Positions 5,749 to 32,937 of a stretch of 64,000 bases of DNA are shown here, piece after piece (the first letter of the stretch is position 1; every line of letters begins with the position of its first letter). The translations under genes were made by a program, and so were the position numbers. This DNA comes from Escherichia coli (GTDB lineage: Bacteria; Pseudomonadota; Gammaproteobacteria; Enterobacterales; Enterobacteriaceae). The stretch lies in NCBI RefSeq assembly GCF_041886205.1, contig NZ_CP169029.1; one strand, given 5' to 3'. A model generated the notes under the pieces. It ran no database searches and was not told the origin of the DNA. It was given only the letters and a program-made list of their open reading frames with translations.

Positions 5749-6792
5749 TTATCCACGTAGTGTAGCCGCAAAATCCAGCATACGATTGAGCGGCACCAGC
5801 GCCCTCTCTCGCAGCCTTTCATCAACATGAACCTCGTGATTGCTTCCTTCCTGTTCTAATGCCTCTGCGATGGCCTGAAGGCCATTCATGGCCATCCACG
5901 GACAATGCGCGCAGCTGCGGCAGGTTGCACCCTCACCTGCGGTTGGTGCTTCCAGTAACTCTTTATCTGGCACCGCCTGCTGCATTTTGTAGAAAATACC
6001 CCGATCGGTTGCCACAATAAGCCTCTGATGTGGCAATGTTTTCGCAGCAGCGATCAGTTGACTGGTGGAACCGACCGCATCCGCCATATCGACAATAGCT
6101 TGTGGTGATTCTGGATGCACCAGTATGGCAGCATCCGGGTATTCTTCTTGCAAGCGGGTTAACGCCTGAGTCTTAAATTCATCATGCACAATACAGGCAC
6201 CCTGCCAGCATAGAATGTCTCCACCCGTCTGTTTTTGCACGTAACGCCCCAGATGTTTGTCGGGTGCCCAGATGATTTTTTCACCCAAACTATCAAGATG
6301 ATCAATAAGTTCGACGGCAATGCTTGAAGTTACCACCCAATCTGCGCGCGCTTTTACCGCAGCAGAAGTGTTGGCGTAGACGACGACAGTACGATCGGGA
6401 TGGGCATCGCAAAATGCGTTAAATTCTTCAACAGGGCAGCCGAGATCCAGTGAACATTCAGCCTGAAGTGTCGGCATCAGAATTGTTTTTTCCGGACTGA
6501 GAATTTTGGCGGTTTCTCCCATAAATCTCACCCCAGCGACTAACAAAGTAGAAGCGGGATGCTTTGCACCGAAGCGCGCCATTTCCAGAGAATCAGAAAT
6601 ACAGCCACCGGTTTCTTCTGCCAGTTGTTGAATTTCGGGATCGGTATAGTAGTGGGCAACCATCACCGCATTACGTTCTTTTAGCAGACGTTTTATCTTC
6701 TCGCGGTAATACGCTTTTTCATCAATGCTTAACGGCGTCGGCTTCGGGGGGAAAGGATAAATCGCCGTGTCTGGATCAAACATTACGCTCAT
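5749..6792 (-). CDS. nadA: quinolinate synthase A
   Basis: 347 aa ORF beginning [18 protein letters not shown]; matches NadA; nadA-pnuC operon arrangement. Confidence 0.93.
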
Positions 6793-6864
6793 CTTACCAT
6801 CTCGTTTTACAGGCTTAACGTTAAAACCGACATTAGCGTAATATTCGCTGTTATCGGTGTAATT

Positions 6865-6882
6865 TGTTTTATATGCTAAACA
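6865..6882. promoter_or_regulatory. putative NadR operator (TGTTTT-N6-TAAACA palindrome) upstream of nadA
   Basis: Palindrome tgttttatatgctaaaca about 75 bp upstream of the nadA start. Confidence 0.4.
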
Positions 6883-7037
6883 AGATAGTCGAATGGTGGG
6901 GAAAAGTCACTCGAATTACGTATGAGATGCCGAATGCCACACTTTGCGTCTTATTCCTCCGACGTAAAGTTGTTTACGCAGCAAGCGCGGAGTATGTCAT
7001 CAGGGTCAAGAATTGAAATTGAGAGATGCCTGAATAG

Positions 7038-7066
7038 CAAAAAAGCGCCTTTAGGGCGCTTTTTTA
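7038..7066 (-). terminator. rho-independent terminator of the lysT tRNA operon
   Basis: gcgcc/ggcgc hairpin with T tract on the minus strand immediately after the last tRNA. Confidence 0.7.
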
Positions 7067-7069
7067 CAT

Positions 7070-7145
7070 TGGTGGGTCGTGCAGGATTCGAACCTGCGAC
7101 CAATTGATTAAAAGTCAACTGCTCTACCAACTGAGCTAACGACCC
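7070..7145 (-). tRNA. lysQ: tRNA-Lys (UUU)
   Basis: Reverse complement matches E. coli tRNA-Lys including anticodon loop (ttaaaag = cUUUUaa) and CCA end. Confidence 0.93.
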
Positions 7146-7277
7146 CTTGCGGGATTATGCTGCTTTAATCATTCAGGATGGTGGGTCGTGCAGGATGACT
7201 GGACTTCGTCTCGCCCTTCGGGCCGTTGCTAACGCAACGTTATCCTTCACGTTCTCTACCAGTAACCACCTTTAAAT

Positions 7278-7353
7278 TGGTGGGTCGTGCAGGATTCGAA
7301 CCTGCGACCAATTGATTAAAAGTCAACTGCTCTACCAACTGAGCTAACGACCC
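7278..7353 (-). tRNA. lysZ: tRNA-Lys (UUU)
   Basis: Identical tRNA-Lys copy. Confidence 0.93.
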
Positions 7354-7499
7354 ATATGGGTGTTACCTGAAAGATTTCTACTCGGAACCAATCTTTAAAA
7401 TTGGTGGCTCGTGCAGGATGACTCGCTTCGCTCGCCCTACGGGCCGTTGCTGGCGTAACGTTATCCTTCACGCTTAACATCTGAGTTTGATGTTAAAAC

Positions 7500-7575
7500 T
7501 GGTGGGTCGTGCAGGATTCGAACCTGCGACCAATTGATTAAAAGTCAACTGCTCTACCAACTGAGCTAACGACCC
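7500..7575 (-). tRNA. lysY: tRNA-Lys (UUU)
   Basis: Identical tRNA-Lys copy. Confidence 0.93.
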
Positions 7576-7578
7576 GAG

Positions 7579-7654
7579 TGGTGGGTGATGACGGGATCGA
7601 ACCGCCGACCCCCTCCTTGTAAGGGAGGTGCTCTCCCAGCTGAGCTAATCACCC
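7579..7654 (-). tRNA. valZ: tRNA-Val (UAC)
   Basis: Reverse complement matches E. coli tRNA-Val1 (anticodon region ccttgtaaggg) with CCA end. Confidence 0.92.
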
Positions 7655-7705
7655 GATACTGCGCTGGATACTACAAACTACTTCCACCGAACCCACCGTA
7701 ATTAG

Positions 7706-7781
7706 TGGTGGGTCGTGCAGGATTCGAACCTGCGACCAATTGATTAAAAGTCAACTGCTCTACCAACTGAGCTAACGACCC
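7706..7781 (-). tRNA. lysW: tRNA-Lys (UUU)
   Basis: Identical tRNA-Lys copy. Confidence 0.93.
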
Positions 7782-7783
7782 GG

Positions 7784-7859
7784 TGGTGGGTGATGACGGG
7801 ATCGAACCGCCGACCCCCTCCTTGTAAGGGAGGTGCTCTCCCAGCTGAGCTAATCACCC
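7784..7859 (-). tRNA. valT: tRNA-Val (UAC)
   Basis: Identical tRNA-Val copy. Confidence 0.92.
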
Positions 7860-7994
7860 AATACTACGCTGGATACTACAACTAACTATGTTAGTGGTGG
7901 GTCGTGCAGGATGACTCGACTTCGTCTCGCCCTTCGGGCCGTTGCTGATGCAACGTTATCCTTCACGTTTTACTACCGCTTCCACCTTAGCGAT

Positions 7995-8070
7995 TGGTGG
8001 GTCGTGCAGGATTCGAACCTGCGACCAATTGATTAAAAGTCAACTGCTCTACCAACTGAGCTAACGACCC
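7995..8070 (-). tRNA. lysT: tRNA-Lys (UUU)
   Basis: Identical tRNA-Lys copy; first gene of the operon on the minus strand. Confidence 0.93.
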
Positions 8071-8234
8071 ACTTTTTCGTTGCTTTCGGTTTGTTTGATA
8101 TCCCGTGGCAACGGCGGCATATATTACTGATTTCAGACTTGAGCGCAACAAAAATTTCGATGCAGATCACTCAACTGCTTATGATTCGCACGACACGACC
8201 AGAAATAATGCGACTTCTGGTCGTGTGTTATGCA

Positions 8235-9026
8235 TTACATCGCGTTCAGACGTTTTTGTGCCTGTTTAGCGCCATCAGTACCAGGGTATTTACTGATAAC
8301 CTGCTGGTATACGGCTTTCGCTTTTGCGGTGTCACCTTTGTCCTGCATGATGACGCCGACTTTAAACATCGCATCAGCAGCCTTTGGTGACTTCGGATAG
8401 TTTTTCACTACCGAAGCAAAATAGTACGCCGCATCATCTTTTTTACCCTTGTTGTAGTTTAACTGACCCAGCCAATAATTGGCGTTTGGCAGGTAAGTTG
8501 AATCAGGGTAATTTTTGATGAAATTCTGAAATGCCACCATTGCGTCATCCTGGCGGGATTTATCCTGCACCAGCGCAATAGCTGCATTGTAATCCGTGTT
8601 TGCATCGCCGCTTTTCACCGGCGCGCCAGCATTCGCAGTACCAGCATCAGCTGTCGGCGTCGTTGATGCCGCCGCACCGCTTTGATCGCTGCTGGTTGAT
8701 TGCGCCGCTGCACCACCGCTGCTGAGGCTGTCGATCTGCAACAGGATCTGCTTTTGCCGCTCCACGACCTGATTCAGTTGATACTGATTTTCCTGAATCT
8801 GACCACGCAGGGAATCAATATCGGATTGATTATCAGAAAGTTGTTGCTGGAGTTGGGTTAAAAGCTGGCTGTGAGCATTAGAAATACGCTCAAGTTGAGT
8901 GACGCGGTCTTCGACCGAGCCTGAGCCGACACTACTGATTGGTGCCTGAGCAAAAGCGGCCCAGGGGGCCGCTATACCAACCAGTAACGACAGACTCAAT
9001 AGTTGATGTCTGAAGTTACTGCTCAT
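8235..9026 (-). CDS. cpoB: cell division coordinator CpoB (YbgF), TPR periplasmic protein
   Basis: 263 aa, signal peptide, coiled-coil Q-rich region then TPR repeats; last gene of tol-pal cluster. Confidence 0.9.
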   Translation of the reverse strand: MSSNFRHQLLSLSLLVGIAAPWAAFAQAPISSVGSGSVEDRVTQLERISNAHSQLLTQLQQQLSDNQSDIDSLRGQIQENQYQLNQVVERQKQILLQIDSLSSGGAAAQSTSSDQSGAAASTTPTADAGTANAGAPVKSGDANTDYNAAIALVQDKSRQDDAMVAFQNFIKNYPDSTYLPNANYWLGQLNYNKGKKDDAAYYFASVVKNYPKSPKAADAMFKVGVIMQDKGDTAKAKAVYQQVISKYPGTDGAKQAQKRLNAM

Positions 9027-9035
9027 GCAATTCTC

Positions 9036-9581
<546 letters not shown>

Positions 9582-9591
9582 TTAATTATTA

Positions 9592-10884
9592 TCACAGATA
9601 CGGCGACCAGGCAGGGAATTTGACCTGTCCATCAGTTGCCGGAAGACGCGCTTTGAAACGCCCATCTGTAGAAACCAAATTCAGCACGGATCCCATCCCC
9701 TGAGAAGAGCTGTAGATTACCATAGTGCCGTTAGGTGCCAGACTTGGCGTTTCATCCAGGAACGTGGACGACAGAACTTGTACGCCTCCCGTTGCCAGAT
9801 CTTGTTTGGCAATGTGCTGCTGCCCACCATTGGAGCTGACCATTACCATAAATTTACCGTCGCTGCTGACATCCGCATCCTGGTTCTGCGAACCTTCCCA
9901 GGTAATACGTTGTGGCGCACCGCCGTTGATATTCACTTTATAAACCTGCGGACGACCGGCCTGGTCAGAAGTAAATGCCAGGTTCTGGCTATCCGGGAAC
10001 CAGGTCGGTTCGGTATTGTTACTGCGACCATCAGTCACCTGGCGGATCTGACCAGAAGCCAAATCCATTACGTACAGGTTCAGACTACCGGTTTTCGACA
10101 AGGCGAATGCCAGTTTGCTGCCGTCTGGCGAGAATGCAGGTGCACCGTTGTGACGCGGGAATGAAGCCACCTGACGTACAGCGCCATTTGCCAGCGTCTG
10201 AATAACCAGCGCGGAACGACCGCTTTCGAAGGTCACATAAGCCAGTTTAGAACCGTCTGGTGACCACGCCGGAGACATCAGCGGCTGCGGTGAACGGTGA
10301 ACGACAAACTGGTTGTAACCGTCATAGTCAGATACGCGCAGTTCATACGGGAACTGACCGCCGTTGGTCTGAACAACGTAGGCAATACGAGTACGGAACG
10401 CACCTTTAATGCCGGTCAGTTTTTCAAACACTTCATCACTGGCGGTATGACCAGCATAACGCAGCCACTGCTTGTTCACTTTGTACGAGTTCTGAGCAAG
10501 TACAGTACCCGGTGCGCCGCCAGTGTCAACAAGTTGATAAGCAACATTGTAAGAACCATCCGGATTCGGAGTGACCTGACCGACAACTACAGCGTCAATG
10601 CCCAGTGCGGACCATGCAGCTGGTTGTACTTCCTGCGCACTACCCGGCTGCTGTGGCAGACGAGCGCGATCTAACGGATTAAATTTACCGCTGTTACGCA
10701 AGTCAGCAGCAACGATGCCGCCAATATCTTCAGGTGCCGCACCAGGCCCCGCCCACTGGAAAGGAACAACACCAATAGGACGACCGGAATCTACACCGCT
10801 GTCGATCACAATGCGGACTTCAGCATGCAGAACTGATGCCCACAGTATGAGAAAACCAAATGCTACTCGTAATGCCTGCTTCAT
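9592..10884 (-). CDS. tolB: Tol-Pal system periplasmic beta-propeller protein TolB
   Basis: 430 aa from [21 protein letters not shown]; matches TolB. Confidence 0.92.
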
Positions 10885-11016
10885 CATATCTCCCTTATCT
10901 GGACCGATGGCCCACGATAATTTAGCAGAATGTTAACAAACTAAAATACACAAAACTACCAGAACCCCGTGGCAACCGGTGCCTGATGTTGACCGTCCGA
11001 ACAGTCAACATCGCGA

Positions 11017-21822: not shown

Positions 21823-23268
21823 ATGGAACTTCGAAATAAGAAATTAACCCATGACGAATTCATGACCGAGCGGCAACAGGTACTGAAAACCTGGGAAACC
21901 GGCAAGGATGTTGAAAACTTTGAAGATGGCGTTAAATACCAACAAACCATCCCTGAGCATAAACGCTTCTCTCTTGCGCTGCTGAAAGCAGACAAGGAAG
22001 GTAAAACCCTTAGCCAACCGCGCGCAGGTGTGGCGCTGATGGACGAACACATCGAACTACTGAAAACACTACAAGAAGAGTGCGATCTGCTGCCAAGCAC
22101 CATCGATGCATATACCCGTCTGAATCGGTACGAAGAAGCGGCTGTAGGGATTAAAAAATCCATCGAAGCCGGAACCTCTAAACTGAACGGTTTACCGGTA
22201 GTTAACCACGGCGTCGCAGCTTGCCGTCGCCTCACCGAAACCCTGCAAAAACCGCTACAGATCCGCCACGGCACGCCAGATGCGCGTCTGCTGGCTGAAA
22301 TCTCGATGTCCAGCGGCTTTACCAGTTACGAAGGCGGCGGCATTTCCTACAACATTCCGTATGCCAAACGCGTAACGCTGGAAAAATCGATCCGCGACTG
22401 GCAGTACTGCGACCGTTTAATGGGGATGTACGAAGAACACGGGATCCGCATCAACCGCGAACCATTTGGCCCACTAACGGGTACGCTGATCCCGCCGTTT
22501 ATCTCGCACTCTATCGCCATAATCGAAGGATTGCTGGCACTGGAACAGGGTGTGAAATCTATCACCGTTGGTTATGGCCAGGTCGGCAGCCTGACGCAGG
22601 ATGTTGCGGCGATCCAGTCTCTGCGTGAACTTGCACACGAATATTTTCAGAGCTATGGCTATACCGACTATGAATTGAGTACCGTGTTTCACCAGTGGAT
22701 GGGCGGCTTTCCGGAAGACGAATCGAAAGCGTTCGCTATTATCTCCTGGGGCGCAGCCGTCGCGGGGATGTCTGGTGCCACCAAAGTCATCACCAAAAGT
22801 CCGCACGAAGCCTGGGGCATCCCGACTGCCGCTGCCAACATTCAAGGGCTAAAAGCCTCCCGCCAGATGCTCAACATGGTCAATGAGCAGAAATTCCCGC
22901 CGTGCCCTGCGGTTGAACTGGAAATTGAACTGATTAAGAGCGAGGTTCGCGCGGTACTGAATAAAGTGTTTGAACTGGGTAATGGTGATATTGCGCGCGG
23001 TACGGTGCTGGCATTTGAAGCGGGCGTACTGGATGTGCCGTTTGCGCCAGCCGCCTGCAACGCGGGCAAAATTCTTCCGGTCCGTGACAACACCGGCGCG
23101 ATACGCGTACTGGAAGCCGGAGCCGTTCCATTGCCAAAAGATATTCTCGACCTCCACCACGATTACGTTGCGGAACGCGCACGCTTTGAAGGACGCCAAC
23201 CGACATTCCAGATGGTTGTAGATGACATCAATGCTGTATCCCACAGTAAATTAATAGGAAGACCATAA
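21823..23268 (+). CDS. glmE: glutamate mutase epsilon subunit (methylaspartate mutase E chain)
   Basis: 481 aa; long blocks resemble remembered clostridial GlmE (PRAGVALMDEHIELL, REPFGPLTGTL, VFHQWMGGFPEDESKAF). Confidence 0.9.
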   Translation: MELRNKKLTHDEFMTERQQVLKTWETGKDVENFEDGVKYQQTIPEHKRFSLALLKADKEGKTLSQPRAGVALMDEHIELLKTLQEECDLLPSTIDAYTRLNRYEEAAVGIKKSIEAGTSKLNGLPVVNHGVAACRRLTETLQKPLQIRHGTPDARLLAEISMSSGFTSYEGGGISYNIPYAKRVTLEKSIRDWQYCDRLMGMYEEHGIRINREPFGPLTGTLIPPFISHSIAIIEGLLALEQGVKSITVGYGQVGSLTQDVAAIQSLRELAHEYFQSYGYTDYELSTVFHQWMGGFPEDESKAFAIISWGAAVAGMSGATKVITKSPHEAWGIPTAAANIQGLKASRQMLNMVNEQKFPPCPAVELEIELIKSEVRAVLNKVFELGNGDIARGTVLAFEAGVLDVPFAPAACNAGKILPVRDNTGAIRVLEAGAVPLPKDILDLHHDYVAERARFEGRQPTFQMVVDDINAVSHSKLIGRP

Positions 23269-24509
23269 TGAAAATAAAACAGGCTCTGTTCACCGCTGGC
23301 TACTCCTCATTCTATTTCGATGACCAGCAGGCGATAAAAAACGGAGCGGGTCATGACGGCTTTTTTTATACCGGGGAGCCGGTAACACAGGGGTTTAACG
23401 CCGTTCGTCAGGCCGGGGAGTGCGTATCGGTACAGTTGATTCTGGAAAACGGCGCGGTCGCCGTAGGTGACTGTGCTACCGTACAGTATTCCGGGGCAGG
23501 TGGTCGCGATCCACTGTTCCTCGCAGAGCACTTTATTCCGTTCCTCAACGATCATATCAAGCCATTACTGGTAGGCCGCGATGTGGATGCTTTCCTGCCG
23601 AATGCCCGTTTCTTCGACAAATTGCGTATTGACGGCAACTTGCTGCATACCGCCGTGCGCTACGGATTATCACAGGCGCTGCTTGATGCTACCGCGCTGG
23701 CAACCGGCCGTCTGAAAACTGAAGTGGTCTGTGATGAATGGCAGTTGCCACGCGTGGCGGAATCCATTCCATTATTTGGTCAGAGCGGCGACGATCGATA
23801 TATCGCCGTCGATAAGATGATCCTTAAAGGCATCGACGTGCTGCCCCATGCGCTGATTAATAACGTCGAGGAGAAGCTGGGCTTTAAAGGTGAAAAACTG
23901 CGCGAATATGTCCGCTGGCTGTCGGATCGCATTCTGAGCAAGCGCACCAGCGCACGCTACCACCCTACCCTGCACATCGATGTATACGGCACTATCGGTC
24001 TGATCTTCGATATGGATCCGCTTCGCTGTGCGCAATACATCGCCAGCCTGGAAACAGAAGCGCAAGGCCTGCCGCTCTACATTGAAGGGCCGGTCGATGC
24101 CGGTAACAAGCCCGATCAAATTCGCCTGCTGACCGCGATTACCAAAGAGCTGACGCGCCTCGGTTCTGGCGTGAAAATTGTGGCCGATGAATGGTGTAAC
24201 ACTTACCAGGATATTGTTGATTTCACCGATGCCGCCAGTTGCCACATGGTGCAAATCAAAACCCCGGATCTGGGCAGTATTCACAACATCGTCGATGCGG
24301 TTCTTTACTGCAACAGCCACAGCATGGAAGCATACCAGGGCGGCACCTGCAATGAAACTGATGTCAGTGCCCGCACCTGTGTCCACGTCGCCCTAGCCGC
24401 TCGCCCTATGCGTATGCTGGTAAAACCAGGGATGGGCTTTGACGAAGGCCTCGATATCGTCTTCAACGAAATGAATCGTACTATCGCGCTGTTGCAGGCT
24501 AAGGATTAA
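23268..24509 (+). CDS. mal: 3-methylaspartate ammonia-lyase (beta-methylaspartase)
   Basis: 413 aa enolase-superfamily protein; motifs GAGHDGF, VQYSGAGGRDPLF, ADEWCNT, HMVQIKTPDLG match methylaspartase; start overlaps glmE stop. Confidence 0.9.
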   Translation: MKIKQALFTAGYSSFYFDDQQAIKNGAGHDGFFYTGEPVTQGFNAVRQAGECVSVQLILENGAVAVGDCATVQYSGAGGRDPLFLAEHFIPFLNDHIKPLLVGRDVDAFLPNARFFDKLRIDGNLLHTAVRYGLSQALLDATALATGRLKTEVVCDEWQLPRVAESIPLFGQSGDDRYIAVDKMILKGIDVLPHALINNVEEKLGFKGEKLREYVRWLSDRILSKRTSARYHPTLHIDVYGTIGLIFDMDPLRCAQYIASLETEAQGLPLYIEGPVDAGNKPDQIRLLTAITKELTRLGSGVKIVADEWCNTYQDIVDFTDAASCHMVQIKTPDLGSIHNIVDAVLYCNSHSMEAYQGGTCNETDVSARTCVHVALAARPMRMLVKPGMGFDEGLDIVFNEMNRTIALLQAKD

Positions 24510-24512
24510 CAA

Positions 24513-25883
24513 ATGGCTCGTTCTTTTAAAGTCTTATCGCCAACGGCAATCCTCGGGTATGGATTCCCGGAAGAGAGCTTCCGCAAAGCGATGGCAGAAT
24601 CGCCTGATCTGATCGCCGTTGATGCAGGCTCTTCCGATCCTGGCCCCCACTACCTCGGAGCGGGCAAACCGTTTACCGATCGCGCAGGGGTCAAGCGCGA
24701 TCTGCGCTATATGATCACCGCAGGCGTGCAAAATAATATACCGGTGGTGATCGGAACGGCCGGCGGTTCTGGTGCCGCACCACACCTGGAGTGGTGCCGA
24801 GAAATAATTCATGAGATTGCCCGGGAAGAGCTCCTCTCGTTCTCGATGGCACTGATCCCGGCAGACGTTGACAAAGCCATCGTCCACCAGGCGCTGGATA
24901 ACGGCAAAATCACGGCGCTGGATTTTGTCCCGCCGTTAACCCACGACGCGATTGACGAAAGTACGTATATCGTCGCGCAAATGGGCATCGAACCCTTCCA
25001 GCGGGCGCTGAAAGAAGGCGCGCAAGTGGTGCTGGGCGGGCGCGCTTACGACCCGGCCTGCTTTGCTGCGCTCCCGATCATGCAAGGCTTTGATGAAGGT
25101 CTGGCGCTGCATTGTGGGAAAATCCTTGAATGCGCGGCAATCGCCGCAACGCCCGGCTCAGGCTCTGACTGTGCGATGGGCATCATTGATGACAACGGCT
25201 TTACGCTGAAGACATTTAATCCGAAGCGTAAATTTACCGAAACGTCAGCAGCTGCACACACACTGTATGAGAAATCCGATCCCTACTTCCTGCCAGGACC
25301 TGGCGGCGTGTTGAACCTGAAAGGCTGCACATTTAAAGCAGTCAATGACGGCGAAGTGTACGTCAGCGGTTCCAAGCATGAAGAAACGCCGTATGCCCTG
25401 AAACTGGAAGGTGCGCGACGGGTGGGCTTCCGCTGTCTGACCATCGCCGGAACGCGCGACCCGATCATGATCGCCGGGATCGATAAAATCATCGATGAAG
25501 TCAAAACCAGCGTTTCGCGTAACCTGTCGCTAGACGATGACAGCATTCGCATCAATTTCCACCTGTACGGCAAAAACGGGGTGATGGGCGACCATGAACC
25601 GATGCAAACTGCCGGGCATGAGCTGGGGATTGTCCTTGATGTAGTTGCACCGACCCAGGAAATTGCCAATAGTGTTTGCTCGCTGGTGCGCTCTACCATG
25701 CTGCACTACGGCTATGAAAACCGCATCGCTACCGCAGGCAACCTGGCGTTCCCGTTCTCTCCTTCTGATATCCAGGGCGGGCCGGTATACGAATTTTCCA
25801 TATATCACCTGATTGAAGCCAACGACGCTCTGCGTTTTGATTTCCATATTGAACAGGTGACGCCAGAAGGAGTTCAGGCATGA
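24513..25883 (+). CDS. conserved protein of unknown function (possibly DUF1446/AtuA-like family)
   Basis: 456 aa ORF 3 bp after mal; soluble; family assignment is from memory of motif pattern only and is tentative. Confidence 0.7.
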   Translation: MARSFKVLSPTAILGYGFPEESFRKAMAESPDLIAVDAGSSDPGPHYLGAGKPFTDRAGVKRDLRYMITAGVQNNIPVVIGTAGGSGAAPHLEWCREIIHEIAREELLSFSMALIPADVDKAIVHQALDNGKITALDFVPPLTHDAIDESTYIVAQMGIEPFQRALKEGAQVVLGGRAYDPACFAALPIMQGFDEGLALHCGKILECAAIAATPGSGSDCAMGIIDDNGFTLKTFNPKRKFTETSAAAHTLYEKSDPYFLPGPGGVLNLKGCTFKAVNDGEVYVSGSKHEETPYALKLEGARRVGFRCLTIAGTRDPIMIAGIDKIIDEVKTSVSRNLSLDDDSIRINFHLYGKNGVMGDHEPMQTAGHELGIVLDVVAPTQEIANSVCSLVRSTMLHYGYENRIATAGNLAFPFSPSDIQGGPVYEFSIYHLIEANDALRFDFHIEQVTPEGVQA

Positions 25884-26197
25884 AACAGTCAATTGTCTCA
25901 CTGGCGCAAGTCATTCGTTCGAAAAATGCCGGACCTTACGAACTGGTTTTAGATATTTTATTTAAAACTAAAGAAAACTATGAGCGAGTTAAATCATCAG
26001 GGCAATTAACCCCAGAACTGATTGCGCGCTTATATCATGTTGAACCTGACTTTATTCATCGTATTGTCTGGTTTGATCCTTCTAACGCAGTAAAAATCGT
26101 CATGCCACGAGATATTATCTCCGGGAATGTAGGTGACAATGATGTCTATGGTGCACAGCAACATGCACCTTTATTAAATATGAGTTTCGATTTGTAA
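25880..26197 (+). CDS. small conserved protein of unknown function (possibly DUF4387-like partner)
   Basis: 105 aa ORF whose start overlaps the previous stop (ATGA), i.e. translationally coupled. Confidence 0.65.
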   Translation: MKQSIVSLAQVIRSKNAGPYELVLDILFKTKENYERVKSSGQLTPELIARLYHVEPDFIHRIVWFDPSNAVKIVMPRDIISGNVGDNDVYGAQQHAPLLNMSFDL

Positions 26198-26280
26198 AAA
26201 TCCGAACACTTTTAGCCAACTGACATCCCGTCACTTATTGCAGTTCAACACTTCAGCTATTTGTAAGGTTGTAATAGCAG

Positions 26281-26313
26281 GTAGATGCCTGAATCTCTAT
26301 TCAGGCATCTACT
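26281..26313 (+). promoter_or_regulatory. perfect 13-bp inverted repeat with 6-nt loop (gtagatgcctgaa-tctcta-ttcaggcatctac) in the intergenic gap before the transporter gene
   Basis: Perfect palindrome between the small ORF and the transporter; only a weak T-rich tract downstream, so it may be an attenuator/processing site or a protein-binding site rather than a strong terminator. Confidence 0.45.
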
Positions 26314-26357
26314 TCTCCTGATTCTGATTTATCGCCGTGCACCTGATGGAGGAAAAA

Positions 26358-27638
26358 ATGAAGAAAATAAGTTTAACCACGATGATTCTTTTGGCGCTGG
26401 TACTTGGAATGATTATCGGCGTAGTGCTCAATAACACTGCTTCACCGGAAACAGCAAAACTCTATGCGCAAGAAATATCGATATTCACGACGATTTTCTT
26501 ACGACTGATAAAAATGATTATCGCTCCGCTAGTGGTTTCTACCCTGGTGGTAGGTATTGCTAAAATGGGCGATGCCAAAGCCCTTGGCCGTATTTTTTCT
26601 AAAACACTCTTTTTATTTATTTGCGCCTCATTGCTATCAATTGCCTTAGGCTTGATAACGGTAAATTTCTTCATGCCAGGTACAGGAATTAATTTTGTTG
26701 CACACGGTGCCGAAACCACTGGAGTGGTCGCGTCAGAACCCTTCACGCTAAAAGTATTTATTTCGCATGCTTTCCCCACCAGCATTGTCGATGCCATGGC
26801 GCACAATGAAATTTTGCAAATCGTGGTGTTCTCAATTTTCCTCGGCTGTAGCCTGACGGCGATTGGCGAGAAAGGCAGCGCCATCGTTCACGCCTTAGAT
26901 TCGCTGGCACATGCCATGTTAAAGCTCACTGGCTACGTCATGCTCTTCGCTCCCCTGACCGTATTCGCCGCTATTTCAGCATTGATTGCTGAACGAGGAC
27001 TGGCAGTTATGGTGAGCGCCGGGATCTTTATGGGTGAATTTTATTTCACCATGTTATTACTTTGGGTGCTGCTTATCGGTCTGGCCATCGTTTATGTCGG
27101 CCCCTGCATCAGACGCCTGACCCGCGCCCTTTCGGAACCCGCCCTGCTGGCATTTACCACATCCAGTTCTGAAGCGGCTTTTCCGGGAACGCTTGAAAAA
27201 CTGGAGCAATTTGGCGTTTCCCCCAAAATTGCCAGCTTTGTCTTACCCATTGGCTACTCATTTAATCTCGTTGGATCAATGGCCTACTGCTCCTTCGCCA
27301 CCGTTTTCATCGCCCAGGCCTGCAATATCCATTTATCCATCGGTGAGCAAATCACCATGCTGTTGATCCTGATGTTGACCTCGAAAGGAATGGCTGGCGT
27401 ACCACGCGCCTCAATGGTGGTTATCGCCGCCACGCTCAACCAGTTCAATATTCCGGAAGCGGGGCTGATCTTGCTGATGGGCGTTGATCCGTTCCTTGAT
27501 ATGGGGCGTTCCGCGACAAACGTCATGAGCAACGCAATGGGCGCTGCGATGGTGAGTCGGTGGGAAGGCGAACATTTCGGCGAGGGCTGTCGGGGTAAAG
27601 CATTAAAATCCAATGAATCGAACGTTGCTCTGCCCTGA
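26358..27638 (+). CDS. dicarboxylate/amino acid:cation symporter (DAACS family, GltP/DctA-like)
   Basis: About 426 aa multi-pass membrane protein with GltP-like motifs (KMIIAPLVVSTLVVGIAKMGD, TSKGMAGVP); start chosen at ATG 26358 after GGAGGA. Confidence 0.88.
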   Translation: MKKISLTTMILLALVLGMIIGVVLNNTASPETAKLYAQEISIFTTIFLRLIKMIIAPLVVSTLVVGIAKMGDAKALGRIFSKTLFLFICASLLSIALGLITVNFFMPGTGINFVAHGAETTGVVASEPFTLKVFISHAFPTSIVDAMAHNEILQIVVFSIFLGCSLTAIGEKGSAIVHALDSLAHAMLKLTGYVMLFAPLTVFAAISALIAERGLAVMVSAGIFMGEFYFTMLLLWVLLIGLAIVYVGPCIRRLTRALSEPALLAFTTSSSEAAFPGTLEKLEQFGVSPKIASFVLPIGYSFNLVGSMAYCSFATVFIAQACNIHLSIGEQITMLLILMLTSKGMAGVPRASMVVIAATLNQFNIPEAGLILLMGVDPFLDMGRSATNVMSNAMGAAMVSRWEGEHFGEGCRGKALKSNESNVALP

Positions 27639-27745: not shown

Positions 27746-29398
27746 ATGTCCAAACCTTTTATCTGGCAAGAACCGTTTCTACAAAATAAAGACGGTACAG
27801 AATATACATTAATTAGCGATCAACATATTACAGTAACGGAATTAGACGGCGAAGAAGTGATAAAAATCGCTCCTGAAGCATTAACGCTGCTTGCCCGGCA
27901 GGCATTTTATGAAGCCTCTTTTTTCTTACGTTCCGCTCATTTGCAACAGGTCGCCAGCATTCTTAACGATCCGCAGGCCAGTAGTAATGATAAATACGTT
28001 GCGTTGCAGTTATTACGTAATGCTGAAGTCTCAGCAAAAGGGGTATTACCCAACTGTCAGGATACCGGCACCGCAACTATTGTTGCCAGTAAAGGGCAAC
28101 AGATATGGACCGGAGGTAACGACGCCGAAGCCTTAAGCAAAGGCATTTACACCACTTTTCAGGAAAATAATCTGCGCTTTTCACAAAATGCGCCGCTGGA
28201 TATGTATACCGAAGTCAATACGCAAACCAATCTCCCGGCGCAGATTGATATCAGCGCTGTCGCTGGTAATGAGTACCATTTTCTCTGTGTTAATAAAGGG
28301 GGCGGCTCTGCCAATAAAGCCGCGCTTTATCAGGAAACCAAATCCTTATTGCAACCAGAAAAACTGACCGCATTTTTAATCGAAAAAATGAAATCGCTGG
28401 GCACCGCTGCCTGCCCGTCTTATCACATCGCCTTTGTCGTCGGAGGGCTTTCAGCCGATCAAACCTTAAAAGTTGCCAAGCTGGCTTCTACGAAATATTT
28501 CGACAATTTGCCCACCAGCGGAAACGAGCAGGGACAAGCATTCCGTGATATTGAGCTGGAAAAAGCGTTGCTCGAGGCCAGTCAGCAATTTGGTATTGGT
28601 GCGCAATTTGGGGGTAAATATTTCGCTCATGATATTCGCGTCATTCGTCTGCCGCGTCACGGTGGCTCTTGCCCGATAGCTATGGCGCTCTCCTGTTCAG
28701 CCGATCGCAATATCAAAGCAAAAATTAACAAACACGGTATCTGGCTGGAAAAACTCGAACACAATCCGGGGCAATATATTCCAGCCTCACTGCGGGAAGA
28801 AAATCACGCGCAACATGTACAACTGGATCTAAACCGTCCGTTGCGTGACGTGATGCAGGATCTCGCCAGATTACCGGTAGGCACCCGCGTGTCGTTAAGT
28901 GGTCCCATCGTAGTGGCGCGCGATATCGCCCACGCCAAAATAAAAGCGCGGCTGGATAGCGGCGAACCGATGCCGGATTACCTGAAGCATCATATTGTCT
29001 ATTACGCTGGCCCGGCGAAAACACCGGAGAACATGGCCTGCGGTTCACTGGGTCCAACCACGGGCGGTCGAATGGACGGTTATGTCGATACCTTCCAGGC
29101 GGCTGGCGGCAGTCTGGTGATGTTATCGAAAGGTAACCGCAGCCAGCAGGTCACCGATGCCTGTCACAAACATGGCGGCTTCAATCTGGGAAGTATTGGC
29201 GGTGCAGCTGCGTTACTGGCGCAAGAATATGTCAAAAGTCTGCGTTGCCTGGAATACCCGGAGCTGGGTATGGAAGCGGTGTGGATGATGGAAGTGGAAA
29301 ATCTGCCCGCATTCATCCTGGTAGATGATAAAGGCAATAATTTCTTTAGTCAGTTTGAGCAGCAACACCGCTGCGCCAGTTGCCCTGCGGGACATTAA
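27746..29398 (+). CDS. fumD: class I fumarate hydratase family protein (FumA/FumB paralogue; likely mesaconase/fumarase)
   Basis: 550 aa, the size of Fe-S class I fumarases with Cys ligands; located with glutamate mutase and methylaspartase, as remembered for FumD of E. coli O157:H7. Confidence 0.8.
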
Positions 29399-29407
29399 GG
29401 AAAATGA

Positions 29408-30010
29408 ATGGAAGCGCGAATTTCAACTGAACGGCATGTGCAGCGCCAACAGAAATTGAAGGAACAGGTCGATACGCGCGTCGCGGCGGCGATAGAGAAA
29501 AAAGGGATCTTGATTGTTTTCACCGGCAACGGCAAAGGGAAATCCACTGCCGCGTTTGGTACTGTGACGCGCGCGGTGGGTCATGGCAAAACGGTGGGGG
29601 TTGCGCAGTACATCAAGGGGCAATGGGACAACGGCGAATACAACCTTCTCCAGCCGCTGGGGGTTGAGTTTCATATTATGGGAACCGGTTTTACCTGGGA
29701 GACACAGAACCGGCAAGCGGATATCGACGCGGCGAAAGAGGTCTGGTCGGAAAGCAAACGGATGCTGGCTGACAAGCGTTACGACTTAGTGGTGCTTGAT
29801 GAGCTGACCTATATGCTGGCTTACCATTATCTGGATACCGAAGAAGTGATCGCTTCTCTGCAAAACCGCCCGGCACAACAAAGTGTCATTGTCACCGGAC
29901 GCGGTTGCCACAGTCAGATATTAAAAATGGCGGATACGGTAAGCGAAATCCGTCCCGTCAAACATGCTTTTGATAACGGCATTCAGGCCCAGCCGGGTAT
30001 CGACTGGTAA
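29408..30010 (+). CDS. cob(I)alamin adenosyltransferase (CobA/BtuR family) paralogue
   Basis: 200 aa with P-loop GNGKGKSTAAFG and strong similarity along its length to remembered E. coli BtuR; last gene of the operon. Confidence 0.88.
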   Translation: MEARISTERHVQRQQKLKEQVDTRVAAAIEKKGILIVFTGNGKGKSTAAFGTVTRAVGHGKTVGVAQYIKGQWDNGEYNLLQPLGVEFHIMGTGFTWETQNRQADIDAAKEVWSESKRMLADKRYDLVVLDELTYMLAYHYLDTEEVIASLQNRPAQQSVIVTGRGCHSQILKMADTVSEIRPVKHAFDNGIQAQPGIDW

Positions 30011-30043
30011 TAACTGCGCCTGGCATCCCGCCAGGCGCAGGTT

Positions 30044-30949
30044 TTACATCTCCTGCGGTACGACCGATTTCACCAGCAACCATTCACGAAATTGCTGCAA
30101 GTGCGGTGAGTCAGACTTCTCTTCCTGCCACGTCATAATAAAACGATTACCGGTACGAATAGGCACATCACAGGGGATCACCATATCGCCACTATCCAAA
30201 TCATGTTGAATAGCGAACCGTGGTAACAGCGCCACGCCGAGATTAGAGCGCACGGCGGCAATCAGCATTGAAAGCAAATCGAAACGTGGTCCGTTGTTGA
30301 CCAGCGGACTGCTAACGCCAGATAAAGCAAACCACTCTTCCCAGCCAGTAATACGGGTGCTTTGATGCAGAAGTGGTAACTCAGTAAGCAGTTCTGCCAC
30401 TGACAGTTTTTGATCGGACATTGCAAGCAAACTGCCACTGCATACCGGCAAAATCTCCTCTTCAAAGAGATATTCTACTTCCGCCCAGGGCGCGCAAAAA
30501 TTTTCGCGCATAATGACAGCATCGTACTCCCGATTAAGAAAATCGCCGTTATTAGCTAAAGAATGAATATTAACAATAATATCGGGATGTAACTTTGTGA
30601 ATTCATGTAAATTTGGGATTAACCAGTGGGTACTAAAAGTAGGATTAACGGCAAGTTCAATAACCTGAACCGTAGGCTGCCAGGTCATAATGGTATTGGT
30701 ATCGCGTTCCAGCTTATTTAATGTTTCTTTTACTATCCCCAGGTAATACTTCCCTGCATCATTAAGAAAAATGCGTTTTTTAGAGTGTGAAAATAATGGA
30801 GTATGTAAAAATTCCTCCAGCGCACTTACTTGTCTGAATACAGCACTTTGGGTTAACGCTAACTCCTCTGCCGCTCTGGTATAACTTTCATGACGTGCGA
30901 CGACCTCAAAAGTCACCAGCAGTTCCGTTTTAGGTATTTTCCCTCGCAT
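30044..30949 (-). CDS. LysR-family transcriptional regulator
   Basis: 301 aa; N-terminal HTH (ESYTRAAEELALTQSAVFRQVSALEEFL) and LysR substrate-binding domain; convergent with the catabolic operon, divergent from the RtcB-like gene. Confidence 0.88.
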   Translation of the reverse strand: MRGKIPKTELLVTFEVVARHESYTRAAEELALTQSAVFRQVSALEEFLHTPLFSHSKKRIFLNDAGKYYLGIVKETLNKLERDTNTIMTWQPTVQVIELAVNPTFSTHWLIPNLHEFTKLHPDIIVNIHSLANNGDFLNREYDAVIMRENFCAPWAEVEYLFEEEILPVCSGSLLAMSDQKLSVAELLTELPLLHQSTRITGWEEWFALSGVSSPLVNNGPRFDLLSMLIAAVRSNLGVALLPRFAIQHDLDSGDMVIPCDVPIRTGNRFIMTWQEEKSDSPHLQQFREWLLVKSVVPQEM

Positions 30950-31539: not shown

Positions 31540-32937
31540 ATGCATCATCTTTCAAGGTTTGATAAAGCCTTTCTGCGCAAAGGGATCCAACTTTCCCGCG
31601 CCAACAATATTGTTTCATTATCTCGTCCATCAGGTGCCAGTGCCCGCGTACTGTTGCCGGACGAACTGCCACTGGAAGAAAAAGCAGTGACACAACTGCT
31701 TGATTTTGCAGAAGTGAAGCTACCAGACCATCCAGGTTATGTACGCCAGACGTGCGCGACGCCAGATTTTCACCCCGGCAATGGCGTCCCCGTTGGCGCG
31801 GTGGTGGCCTCAACGCCGGATTTAGTCATTCCCGCCGCCATCGGCACCGATATTTCTTGCGGCATGCGGCTGCTAACGACTGGATTAACACTTGAACAAG
31901 CCGAAGCGCATAAAGACGTCATCACTCAGCGGTTAACGCAAGTGCTACTGCAAAATGAGCGCGATGTTCCGTTATCCGCACAGGCGTTCACCGCGCTTTT
32001 TGATGGCGGACCGGCAGATTGCGTGTCGACCTTGCCATCAGCAGGTCTCTGGACACGCATGAATATCCCCCGAATGGTACAAGAGATTGACCGCTGCATT
32101 GGGCTTAACGAGCATAACAGTCACTCGCGTTATGCCCCACCCGCCCTGCTGGCAACGGACCGCGCATTACTCCGCGACCCTTGTCTGGGTACGCCGGGTT
32201 CAGGTAATCATTTTATTGAACTTCAGGTAGTTGATAGCGTGATCGATCGCCATGTAGCCTGGCAACAAGGGCTGAAAACGGGCGATATCGTGGTGATGAT
32301 CCACAGTGGATCGCGAGATGTTGGCTTTTACGTCGGAAGACGCTGGATGGATCGCGCCCGTGCTGAATGGCCCATCGGACATAAACATCCACAAAGCGGG
32401 TTATATGGTCTGGCAGGCGGACTGGCGGAGGAATATCTACAAGCGATGGGAATGGCGGCGCGTTACGCATGGTTAAATCGCGTGACCATTGCGGAAATGG
32501 TTCGCGTATGTTTTGCCGATTTATTTCATCAGGATGATTCACATCTGGTGGTGGATGTGCCGCATAACATCATCCTTCGCGAACATGAAATGAATATTCA
32601 TCGCAAAGGTGCAACACCGGCACACGCGGGCGCTCTGGCATTAATCCCCGGTTCAATGGGCGATTATACGTGGCTTGCGGTAGGTTGCGGCAACCCGGAG
32701 TGGTTGTGGTCATGCAGTCACGGAGCAGGACGCAGCCAGCGTCGGCAGGCCATGCGCTCACGCGCGACTGAAGAGTCAACGCTGCCGTGGCAATGCGTCA
32801 CATTGCGTGAAGAACGACGTCTTGAAGAAGCGCCAGCTGCTTATAAAGATATTGCTCCGGTTATCGAAGCCCAACAAGAAGCTGGATTGATTCAGCCTGC
32901 GGTCAGATTTCGACCGTGGTTAACGTTTAAGGGGTAA
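31540..32937 (+). CDS. RtcB-family RNA ligase paralogue with ~55 aa N-terminal extension
   Basis: 465 aa; RtcB motifs DFHPGNG, IPAAIGTDISCGMR, GSGNHFIELQ, HSGSRDVG, IPGSMGDY, SCSHGAGR, AYKDI line up with remembered E. coli RtcB. Confidence 0.85.
   Translation: MHHLSRFDKAFLRKGIQLSRANNIVSLSRPSGASARVLLPDELPLEEKAVTQLLDFAEVKLPDHPGYVRQTCATPDFHPGNGVPVGAVVASTPDLVIPAAIGTDISCGMRLLTTGLTLEQAEAHKDVITQRLTQVLLQNERDVPLSAQAFTALFDGGPADCVSTLPSAGLWTRMNIPRMVQEIDRCIGLNEHNSHSRYAPPALLATDRALLRDPCLGTPGSGNHFIELQVVDSVIDRHVAWQQGLKTGDIVVMIHSGSRDVGFYVGRRWMDRARAEWPIGHKHPQSGLYGLAGGLAEEYLQAMGMAARYAWLNRVTIAEMVRVCFADLFHQDDSHLVVDVPHNIILREHEMNIHRKGATPAHAGALALIPGSMGDYTWLAVGCGNPEWLWSCSHGAGRSQRRQAMRSRATEESTLPWQCVTLREERRLEEAPAAYKDIAPVIEAQQEAGLIQPAVRFRPWLTFKG

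Follow-up and report, generated by a model that had tools for sequence, protein, structure and literature searches.

The open reading frame (ORF) that closes the methylaspartate (glutamate mutase) cluster of this Escherichia coli chromosome encodes a full-length member of the CobA/BtuR/CobO adenosyltransferase family. We term it cobA2; it occupies 29408..30010 on the plus strand (200 codons, ATG to TAA, 200 amino acids) of the window, by which we mean the whole 64,000-nucleotide stretch analyzed here. Taken together, the comparisons described below make it reasonably probable that cobA2 is a pathway-linked adenosyltransferase, (re)making adenosylcobalamin (AdoCbl) locally for glutamate mutase when the cluster is on.

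That cobA2 is a cluster gene is already known, annotated, and published, and the gene is ordinary in this respect. PGAP names it "cobO, cob(I)yrinic acid a,c-diamide adenosyltransferase". The cluster was described by Kronen & Berg (PLoS One 2015, PMC4682846), who characterized FumD biochemically as a mesaconase/fumarase and listed "CobA, cob(I)alamin adenosyltransferase" and a LysR regulator among the cluster members in the legend of their Fig 5; this CobA is the same gene as cobA2, the O157:H7 orthologue being 99.5% identical at the DNA level. The same study put the frequency of the cluster at 26.5% among E. coli strains and at 90.6% among O157:H7 strains, found no condition giving cluster expression in E. 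coli ATCC 700728, saw no effect of added hydroxo-, cyano-, or adenosylcobalamin in anaerobic growth tests, and gave the fate of citramalate as unknown. We found no paper in the literature that studied the cobA2 paralogue itself, and a search for expression data by the locus tags ECs0753 to ECs0758 returned nothing on cobA2. PMC4682846 names CobA only in the figure legend; the divergence from btuR, the phylogeny, and the residue and selection analyses are from the present work, which cleanly separates the cluster-linked from the yciK-linked clade and adds evidence for purifying selection, a putative two-unit architecture in which cobA is coupled to fumD, and a clade-specific loss of Arg165. The significance of cobA2 is modest, and what the cluster as a whole does for the cell is the more interesting question.

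Family membership and conserved residues of cobA2

The Pfam profile PF02572 (CobA_CobO_BtuR) matched the cobA2 product over its entire length (positions 1 to 172 of 172; E value, 4.7e-64; 216 bits, with a cut-off of 25.7), and two NCBIfam models scored above their cut-offs (TIGR00708 cobA, an equivalog model, with 246.6 bits against 167.75; NF004637, with 295.6 bits against 185). The CobA N-terminal family PF12557 (Co_AT_N) reached 20.6 bits, slightly below its cut-off of 21.4; it and PF02572 were the only Pfam matches, PduO-type and EutT-type families being absent from them. Salmonella enterica CobA (PDB 1G5R/1G5T/1G64 and 4HUT) and E. coli BtuR are of the same family and length class. Residues 6 to 200 of cobA2 aligned without gaps to residues 2 to 196 of the crystallized S. 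enterica enzyme (1g5r; 195 residues; E value, 2.5e-88; ~70% identity; 4hut was aligned too), and the equivalents of its P-loop, Phe91/Trp93, Arg51, Glu128, and Arg161 are all found in cobA2. In the putative N-terminal helix segment ahead of the P-loop domain, residues 6 to 30 of cobA2 pair gap-free with 1g5r residues 2 to 26.

The P-loop reads GNGKGKST (residues 40 to 47; 29525..29548, plus strand). Its Ser46 is a Thr in S. enterica and E. coli; among 119 diverse family members, 49 have Ser at this position, as do the copies from Hafnia, Edwardsiella, and Morganella. Every residue of the motif is typical of the family, and inactivation of the P-loop by the Thr-to-Ser change was ruled out, since the change is common in the family. 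Phe95-Thr96-Trp97 (29690..29698, plus strand) corresponds to Phe91/Trp93 in the alignment to 1g5r and 4hut, and the Phe95 and Trp97 positions did not vary among the 83 enterobacterial sequences examined. Phe91 and Trp93 are called critical in the title of Moore et al. 2012 (cited in PMC5282855). In cobA2 numbering, K43, K45, T47, R55, F95, W97, E132, and R165 are all kept. The equivalents of Lys39, Lys41, Thr43, Arg51, Glu128, and Arg161 (S. enterica numbering) are present in cobA2 and in 15 of 15 cluster-linked copies, and these positions are the most conserved in the family (85 to 98% among the 119 diverse members). We infer that the cobA2 product is an active ATP:co(I)rrinoid adenosyltransferase. 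Substitutions fixed in the cluster-linked copies comprise R28K, T42S, P70D, and R74Y, next to a 4-residue N-terminal extension; the four positions vary across the wider family, so that the changes are no evidence of new chemistry, and a reading of them as altered chemistry was rejected.

A preliminary description of this DNA had taken the gene for a second adenosyltransferase gene, paralogous to the housekeeping one, and this was borne out. The protein shares 131 of 196 positions (67%) with the E. coli BtuR encoded between yciK and rluB in another strain, and DNA identity to btuR is ~68%, far below the near 100% that the description had named as the mark of an assembly duplication; the inactive P-loop that it had named as the other sign against its reading was not found either, the motif being intact. 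Whereas the housekeeping gene lies between yciK and rluB, this synteny is missing at cobA2, which comes after fumD as the last gene of the methylaspartate cluster.

Between E. coli cobA2 and its orthologues from other genera, pN was 0.085 to 0.118 and pS was 0.68 to 0.83, which is saturated. Where dS could be estimated, dN/dS was ~0.04 to 0.09, similar to that of the housekeeping btuR. cobA2 is under strong purifying selection, which lends indirect support to ATP-dependent adenosylation of cob(I)alamin or cob(I)inamide by its product.

Gene order and transcription of the cluster

The window is E. coli chromosome, running from tol-pal and cydAB to mngAB, suc, sdh, and gltA. An insert between cydA and mngB carries the cluster, with the order glmS-glmL-glmE-mal-AtuA-like-DUF4387-gltP-fumD-cobA, all on the plus strand, together with two low-GC plus-strand ORFs without a Pfam match and, after the LysR gene, an RtcB-family gene on the plus strand. 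The cluster here thus lies between cydA on one side and the RtcB gene and mngB on the other, whereas sucD is the neighbor of the LysR gene in O157:H7 strain Z869; the O157:H7 orthologue of cobA2 is likewise found directly after fumD (ECs0757) and before the LysR gene.

The first gene, glmS (19967..20416; PF02310 B12-binding; E value, 1.1e-13), encodes the sigma subunit of glutamate (methylaspartate) mutase, which binds B12 and is the presumed cofactor client, and its 99% identical O157 orthologue is annotated as methylaspartate mutase subunit S. It is followed by glmL/mutL (20416..21804; PF13941 MutL; E value, 6.6e-140), which encodes the glutamate mutase accessory protein (PGAP name, "methylaspartate mutase accessory protein GlmL"), a putative reactivase that is cited in PMC4682846 as a chaperone for reactivation, and by glmE (21823..23268; TIGR01503, 863 bits with a cut-off of 390; PF06368, E value of 4e-214), which encodes the catalytic epsilon subunit. 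These three genes lie 7.6 to 9.4 kb upstream of cobA2. Next come mal, for methylaspartate ammonia-lyase (23268..24509; TIGR01502, 542 bits with a cut-off of 286), and a pair spanning 24513..26197 that consists of an AtuA-like gene (24513..25883; PF07287) and a DUF4387 gene (25880..26197; PF14330), the pair being 84 to 92% conserved in 13 of 13 other species. A gltP-like gene for a dicarboxylate/amino acid:cation symporter of the SDF family (26358..27638; PF00375; E value, 2.3e-102) follows, for which the mechanically called ORF begins at a GTG at 26337 and 26358 corresponds to the PGAP start in O157. fumD, for a class I fumarase/mesaconase (27746..29398; NF011921, 1,279 bits with a cut-off of 1,060), directly precedes cobA2, and a LysR-family regulator gene (30044..30949, minus strand; PF00126 and PF03466) is convergent with it.

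The gap between fumD and cobA2 is 9 nt, and it is the same or nearly so in O157:H7 and in all 13 other species. An AAGGA Shine-Dalgarno sequence (29397..29401, plus strand) overlaps the fumD stop codon and ends 6 nt before the cobA2 ATG. By its sequence context, cobA2 is coupled most tightly to fumD, which encodes an Fe-S and not a B12 enzyme, rather than to glmS or glmE. Three bases past the cobA2 stop codon, a terminator-like hairpin (30014..30040, plus strand; 11 base pairs, of which 9 are G-C, and then GTTTTA; −25.0 kcal/mol, z −6.9) separates the convergent cobA2 and LysR genes. It ranked first among the terminator-like hairpins of the 14.6-kb region that was scanned, and a hairpin of differing sequence is found 3′ of cobA in all 14 cluster loci (O157:H7 and 13 species).

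The preliminary description had presented cobA2 as the end of an operon. It is the last gene of the cluster, but a single operon is uncertain, as a second strong hairpin lies between DUF4387 and gltP (26276..26316, plus strand; −25.2 kcal/mol, z −5.1; none of 200 shuffles folded as well) and recurs at the same position, again with differing sequences, in 14 of 14 loci examined, where it could be a boundary or a processing site. Because of this hairpin, the cluster may consist of two transcription units, one from glmS through DUF4387 and the other comprising gltP-fumD-cobA. Junctions are short or overlapping within glmS-DUF4387 and at fumD-cobA2, and the gaps between the blocks measure 107 to 139 nt.

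The same description had suggested that the island is self-sufficient for making AdoCbl from imported corrinoids, and this was not supported. No corrinoid transporter, Co(II)/Co(I) reductase, flavodoxin, or cobUST-type loop-assembly gene was recognized among the scanned cluster ORFs, and no cobalamin riboswitch or other B12-linked RNA element was present in the whole window at Rfam gathering thresholds. cobA2 would add only the last step, which is already supplied by btuR in the same genomes. A further suggestion of that description, that the pathway may be limited by cofactor supply rather than by enzyme level, is speculative; the one laboratory study saw no cluster expression, whether or not cobalamins were added.

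Spread and descent of cobA2

At least one CobA-type gene is present in 5,422 of 5,426 complete E. coli genomes, and cobA2 is found at an identity of at least 95% in ~1,122 of these records. The 10-kb glmS-to-cobA block, at a coverage of at least 80%, is found in 1,117 complete genomes, and given these two numbers, cobA2 is inherited with the cluster approximately one to one. The whole cluster is present in about 21% of complete E. coli genomes, almost all of which have kept btuR as well; among the records listed, each cobA2 carrier has a second, 68%-identical place (btuR), and the totals (6,546 places in 5,425 records) are consistent with two places per carrier. An optional methylaspartate cluster, present in roughly one in five complete E. 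coli genomes (O157:H7 among them), brings along a predicted cofactor-activation step of its own and a putative reactivase. In PLSDB, no clear plasmid-borne cobA2 was found, the matches being mostly chromosome-sized records or large fragments labeled as plasmids.

For the comparison across species, contigs of one genome per species were scanned, giving 80 loci, and the proteins of the window were then searched for by tblastn. Identity to cobA2 was sharply bimodal. The loci at 80 to 86% identity, which come from several Citrobacter species, a Raoultella metagenome-assembled genome (MAG), Lelliottia, two Buttiauxella, and Klebsiella michiganensis, carry GlmL-GlmE-Mal-AtuA-like-DUF4387-GltP-FumD-CobA and a convergent LysR gene in 13 of 13 cases; the LysR gene is at the same position in all 13 species (80 to 87% identical), and the cobA2 orthologues of these species and of O157:H7 are full length. 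This linkage at 13/13 loci, together with the inheritance of the E. coli cluster as a unit, upholds the earlier proposal that the paralogue is encoded with a B12-dependent enzyme, here glutamate mutase as the presumed client. Loci at 65 to 71% identity have the arrangement yciK-cobA-rluB (65 yciK-linked loci), with the single exception of Morganella morganii. Nine genomes other than E. coli contain both kinds of loci.

A neighbor-joining tree was built with 200 bootstraps and seven outgroup CobA sequences. The cluster-linked copies were monophyletic in all 200 bootstraps (100%), and the yciK-linked copies formed a group of their own, without cluster copies, in 74%. The comparative linkage and the neighbor-joining result together mark cobA2 as an ancient paralogue or xenologue that stems from the Enterobacterales or their vicinity, and not as a recent duplicate of btuR.

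Candidate roles of cobA2

In the reading that we prefer, a pathway-linked adenosyltransferase, the glutamate mutase (GlmS/GlmE) needs AdoCbl and, like other AdoCbl enzymes, comes to carry damaged cob(II)alamin or hydroxocobalamin. GlmL would exchange the dead cofactor out of the mutase, transferase-bound Co(II) would be reduced to Co(I) by a host reductant, and CobA2 would then move the adenosyl group of ATP onto it, so that AdoCbl is regenerated. With cobA2 encoded next to fumD in the cluster, adenosylation capacity would scale with the pathway, as opposed to supply by btuR alone. The GlmL accessory protein or reactivase is encoded in the cluster alongside cobA2, and we infer that cobA2 is co-expressed with the cluster and that glutamate mutase profits from it. 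Against this reading stand the failure to detect cluster expression in ATCC 700728 even with added cobalamins, the formal redundancy with btuR, the closer coupling of cobA2 to fumD than to glmS or glmE, the conserved hairpin between the glm-mal block and gltP-fumD-cobA, and the Morganella module described below. For engineering purposes, co-expression of glmL and cobA2 may help glutamate mutase expression in E. coli or the function of the cluster.

Known systems offer parallels for such an arrangement. PduO, PduGH, and PduS accompany diol dehydratase in the same three-part logic, and the pdu system of Salmonella resembles the present cluster in that a dedicated adenosyltransferase and a reactivase occur in a host that also has the housekeeping CobA. 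Redundancy of EutT and PduO with CobA has reportedly been dealt with by Johnson 2001 and Sheppard 2004. For ethanolamine ammonia-lyase, PMC9426561 sets out the same logic with EutT and EutA. In the eut operon of Salmonella, too, the adenosyltransferase is encoded with the AdoCbl enzyme and its reactivase, the counterpart of the latter here being GlmL. As a functional class, the EutT/PduO paradigm fits cobA2, which lies in a conserved cluster with an AdoCbl enzyme and a reactivase while the host keeps a general adenosyltransferase, and the design of a pathway-private adenosyltransferase would have been reached here for a third time, with the CobA family. EutT and PduO differ from cobA2, however, in belonging to protein families unrelated to CobA, and the present cluster, unlike eut and pdu, encodes no microcompartment shell proteins, so that the rationale of a private cofactor pool is not transferable. 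The human/PduO-type adenosyltransferase (MMAB) delivers AdoCbl to methylmalonyl-CoA mutase; it is similar in the idea of an adenosyltransferase that serves one carbon-skeleton mutase but has a fold unlike that of the CobA type. No CobA-type enzyme is known to transfer AdoCbl directly.

Alternatively, cobA2 might be an active CobA without a dedicated role, duplicating btuR and captured together with gltP-fumD-LysR from a donor that had cobA beside B12 genes. We regard this as unlikely. Every cobA2 carrier examined also has btuR, which makes cobA2 formally redundant, its catalytic residues are ordinary for the family, and its tight linkage to fumD leaves room for such a history. In M. morganii, gltP, fumD, and cobA (196 amino acids), one further ORF, and a LysR gene (62% identical) adjoin cobT, cobC, cobS, and cbiP, and no glm or mal genes were found within 10 kb on either side of cobA, so that the linkage of cobA2 to glm and mal could be partly historical. 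The Morganella copy, like the cluster clade, falls outside the yciK-linked group; it was the sister of the cluster clade in a midpoint-rooted tree, a pairing that received only 46% bootstrap support when outgroups were added. Proteus mirabilis, of the same family as Morganella, has the ordinary yciK-linked arrangement. Against capture without a role stand the saturated synonymous sites combined with a dN/dS of 0.04 to 0.09 in lineages that also hold btuR, and the retention of the gene in 13 of 13 species and about one to one with the cluster in E. coli. If the gene were purely redundant, some lineages should have lost it or let it decay; retention and long-term selection speak against pure redundancy and for the pathway-linked role.

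It is improbable, in our estimate, that cobA2 is a specialized variant with a changed partner surface, which would use an electron donor other than FldA or hand AdoCbl directly to GlmS; if true, CobA2 would be without precedent among CobA-type enzymes in having a client of its own. In its favor is the loss of the Arg165/Asp166 surface pair (S. enterica numbering), which is invariant in the enterobacterial housekeeping CobA: Arg165, found in 67 of 67 yciK-linked copies and in the Morganella copy, is replaced by Ser, Thr, or Ala in 15 of 15 cluster copies, and the adjoining Asp166 is replaced as well. The other clade-fixed changes, R28K, P70D, and R74Y, could be read in the same way. Buan & Escalante-Semerena (J Biol Chem 2005) are said to have found Arg9 and Arg165 of CobA important for FldA docking and not for catalysis. 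Yet the equivalent of Arg9 is kept in the cluster copies, no candidate reductase was seen among the cluster ORFs with a Pfam match, and position 165 varies freely in the wider family (P, E, A, R, Q, K, and D among the 119 diverse members), which places the loss of Arg165 within normal variation and leaves specialization with a low probability.

Practically no weight remains for an artifact or a dead gene: an assembly duplicate of btuR was ruled out by the 67% protein and ~68% DNA identity and by the occurrence of cobA2 at an identity of at least 95% in ~1,120 independent complete genomes, and a decayed pseudogene was ruled out by the intact 200-codon frame and P-loop, the full-length orthologues, and a dN/dS far below 1.

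The Arg165-Asp166 position and the fumD-cobA module

In the cluster-encoded CobA, the Arg165-Asp166 pair (Salmonella enterica CobA numbering) is replaced by Ser169-Gln170 (residues 169 and 170 of the ORF, nt 29912 to 29917). Arg165 was invariant in the yciK-linked enterobacterial CobA/BtuR sequences examined (67 of 67), and the 15 cluster copies carry Ser, Thr, or Ala followed by Gln, Leu, or Arg at this site.

In Morganella morganii (locus L062, nt 6573 to 17112), gltP-fumD-cobA is followed by an ORF encoding an M48-peptidase-like protein and by a LysR gene, and the module directly adjoins cobT, a histidine-phosphatase (cobC-like) gene, cobS, a 181-amino-acid ORF, and cbiP. No glm or mal genes were found within 10 kb on either side of the Morganella cobA. 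The arrangement points to a fumD-cobA module that existed before it became linked to glutamate mutase in Enterobacteriaceae.

The gap between gltP and fumD is 1150 to 1362 nt in the 13 cluster loci of other enterobacterial species (L003 to L015), compared to 107 nt in E. coli. The extra ∼1.2 kb presumably corresponds to the glutaminase gene glsA, which is drawn in Fig. 5 of Kronen and Berg (PLoS One 2015, PMC4682846); the E. coli cluster has presumably either lost glsA or never acquired it.

The AtuA-like/DUF4387 pair and the downstream hairpin

Between mal and gltP (nt 24513 to 26197) lie the genes for an AtuA-like protein (456 amino acids, PF07287) and a DUF4387 protein (105 amino acids), which overlap by 4 nt and differ in GC content (0.38 for the DUF4387 gene versus 0.55 for its AtuA-like neighbor). 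The pair is conserved at 84 to 92% in all 13 other species, and in Dictyoglomus a homologue adjoins mal (Kronen and Berg, PMC4682846). The DUF4387-gltP intergenic region contains a perfect 16-bp hairpin (nt 26276 to 26316; −25 kcal/mol, z −5.1). All 13 other species also have a hairpin at this intergenic position, with a different sequence, suggesting that the cluster is divided at a conserved site, which may be a transcript boundary, an attenuator, or a processing site.

Ends of the insert and other window features

On the left, between cydA and glmS, two adjacent low-GC ORFs of 314 and 160 amino acids (nt 17972 to 19480; GC, 0.37 to 0.38) gave no Pfam match; the intergenic region after them is 486 nt long and has a GC content of 31%. 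Both ORFs are also present in O157:H7, annotated as hypothetical proteins. On the right, an RtcB-family RNA ligase gene (nt 31540 to 32937; PF01139, E value of 4.4e-95), preceded by an AT-rich spacer of 590 nt, lies between the LysR regulator gene and mngB. At the corresponding site of the O157:H7 strain Z869, both the RtcB gene and mngRAB are missing and the LysR gene adjoins sucD, so that E. coli lineages differ in how the insert is joined on its right-hand side.

Other window features are ordinary for E. coli and bear no relation to the cobA finding: seven tandem tRNA genes with three interleaved RtT repeats (nt 7073 to 8070, minus strand), a CpoB/ybgF thermometer (nt 8997 to 9135, Rfam match), and, at other positions, Rfam matches to naRNA4 and ES036.
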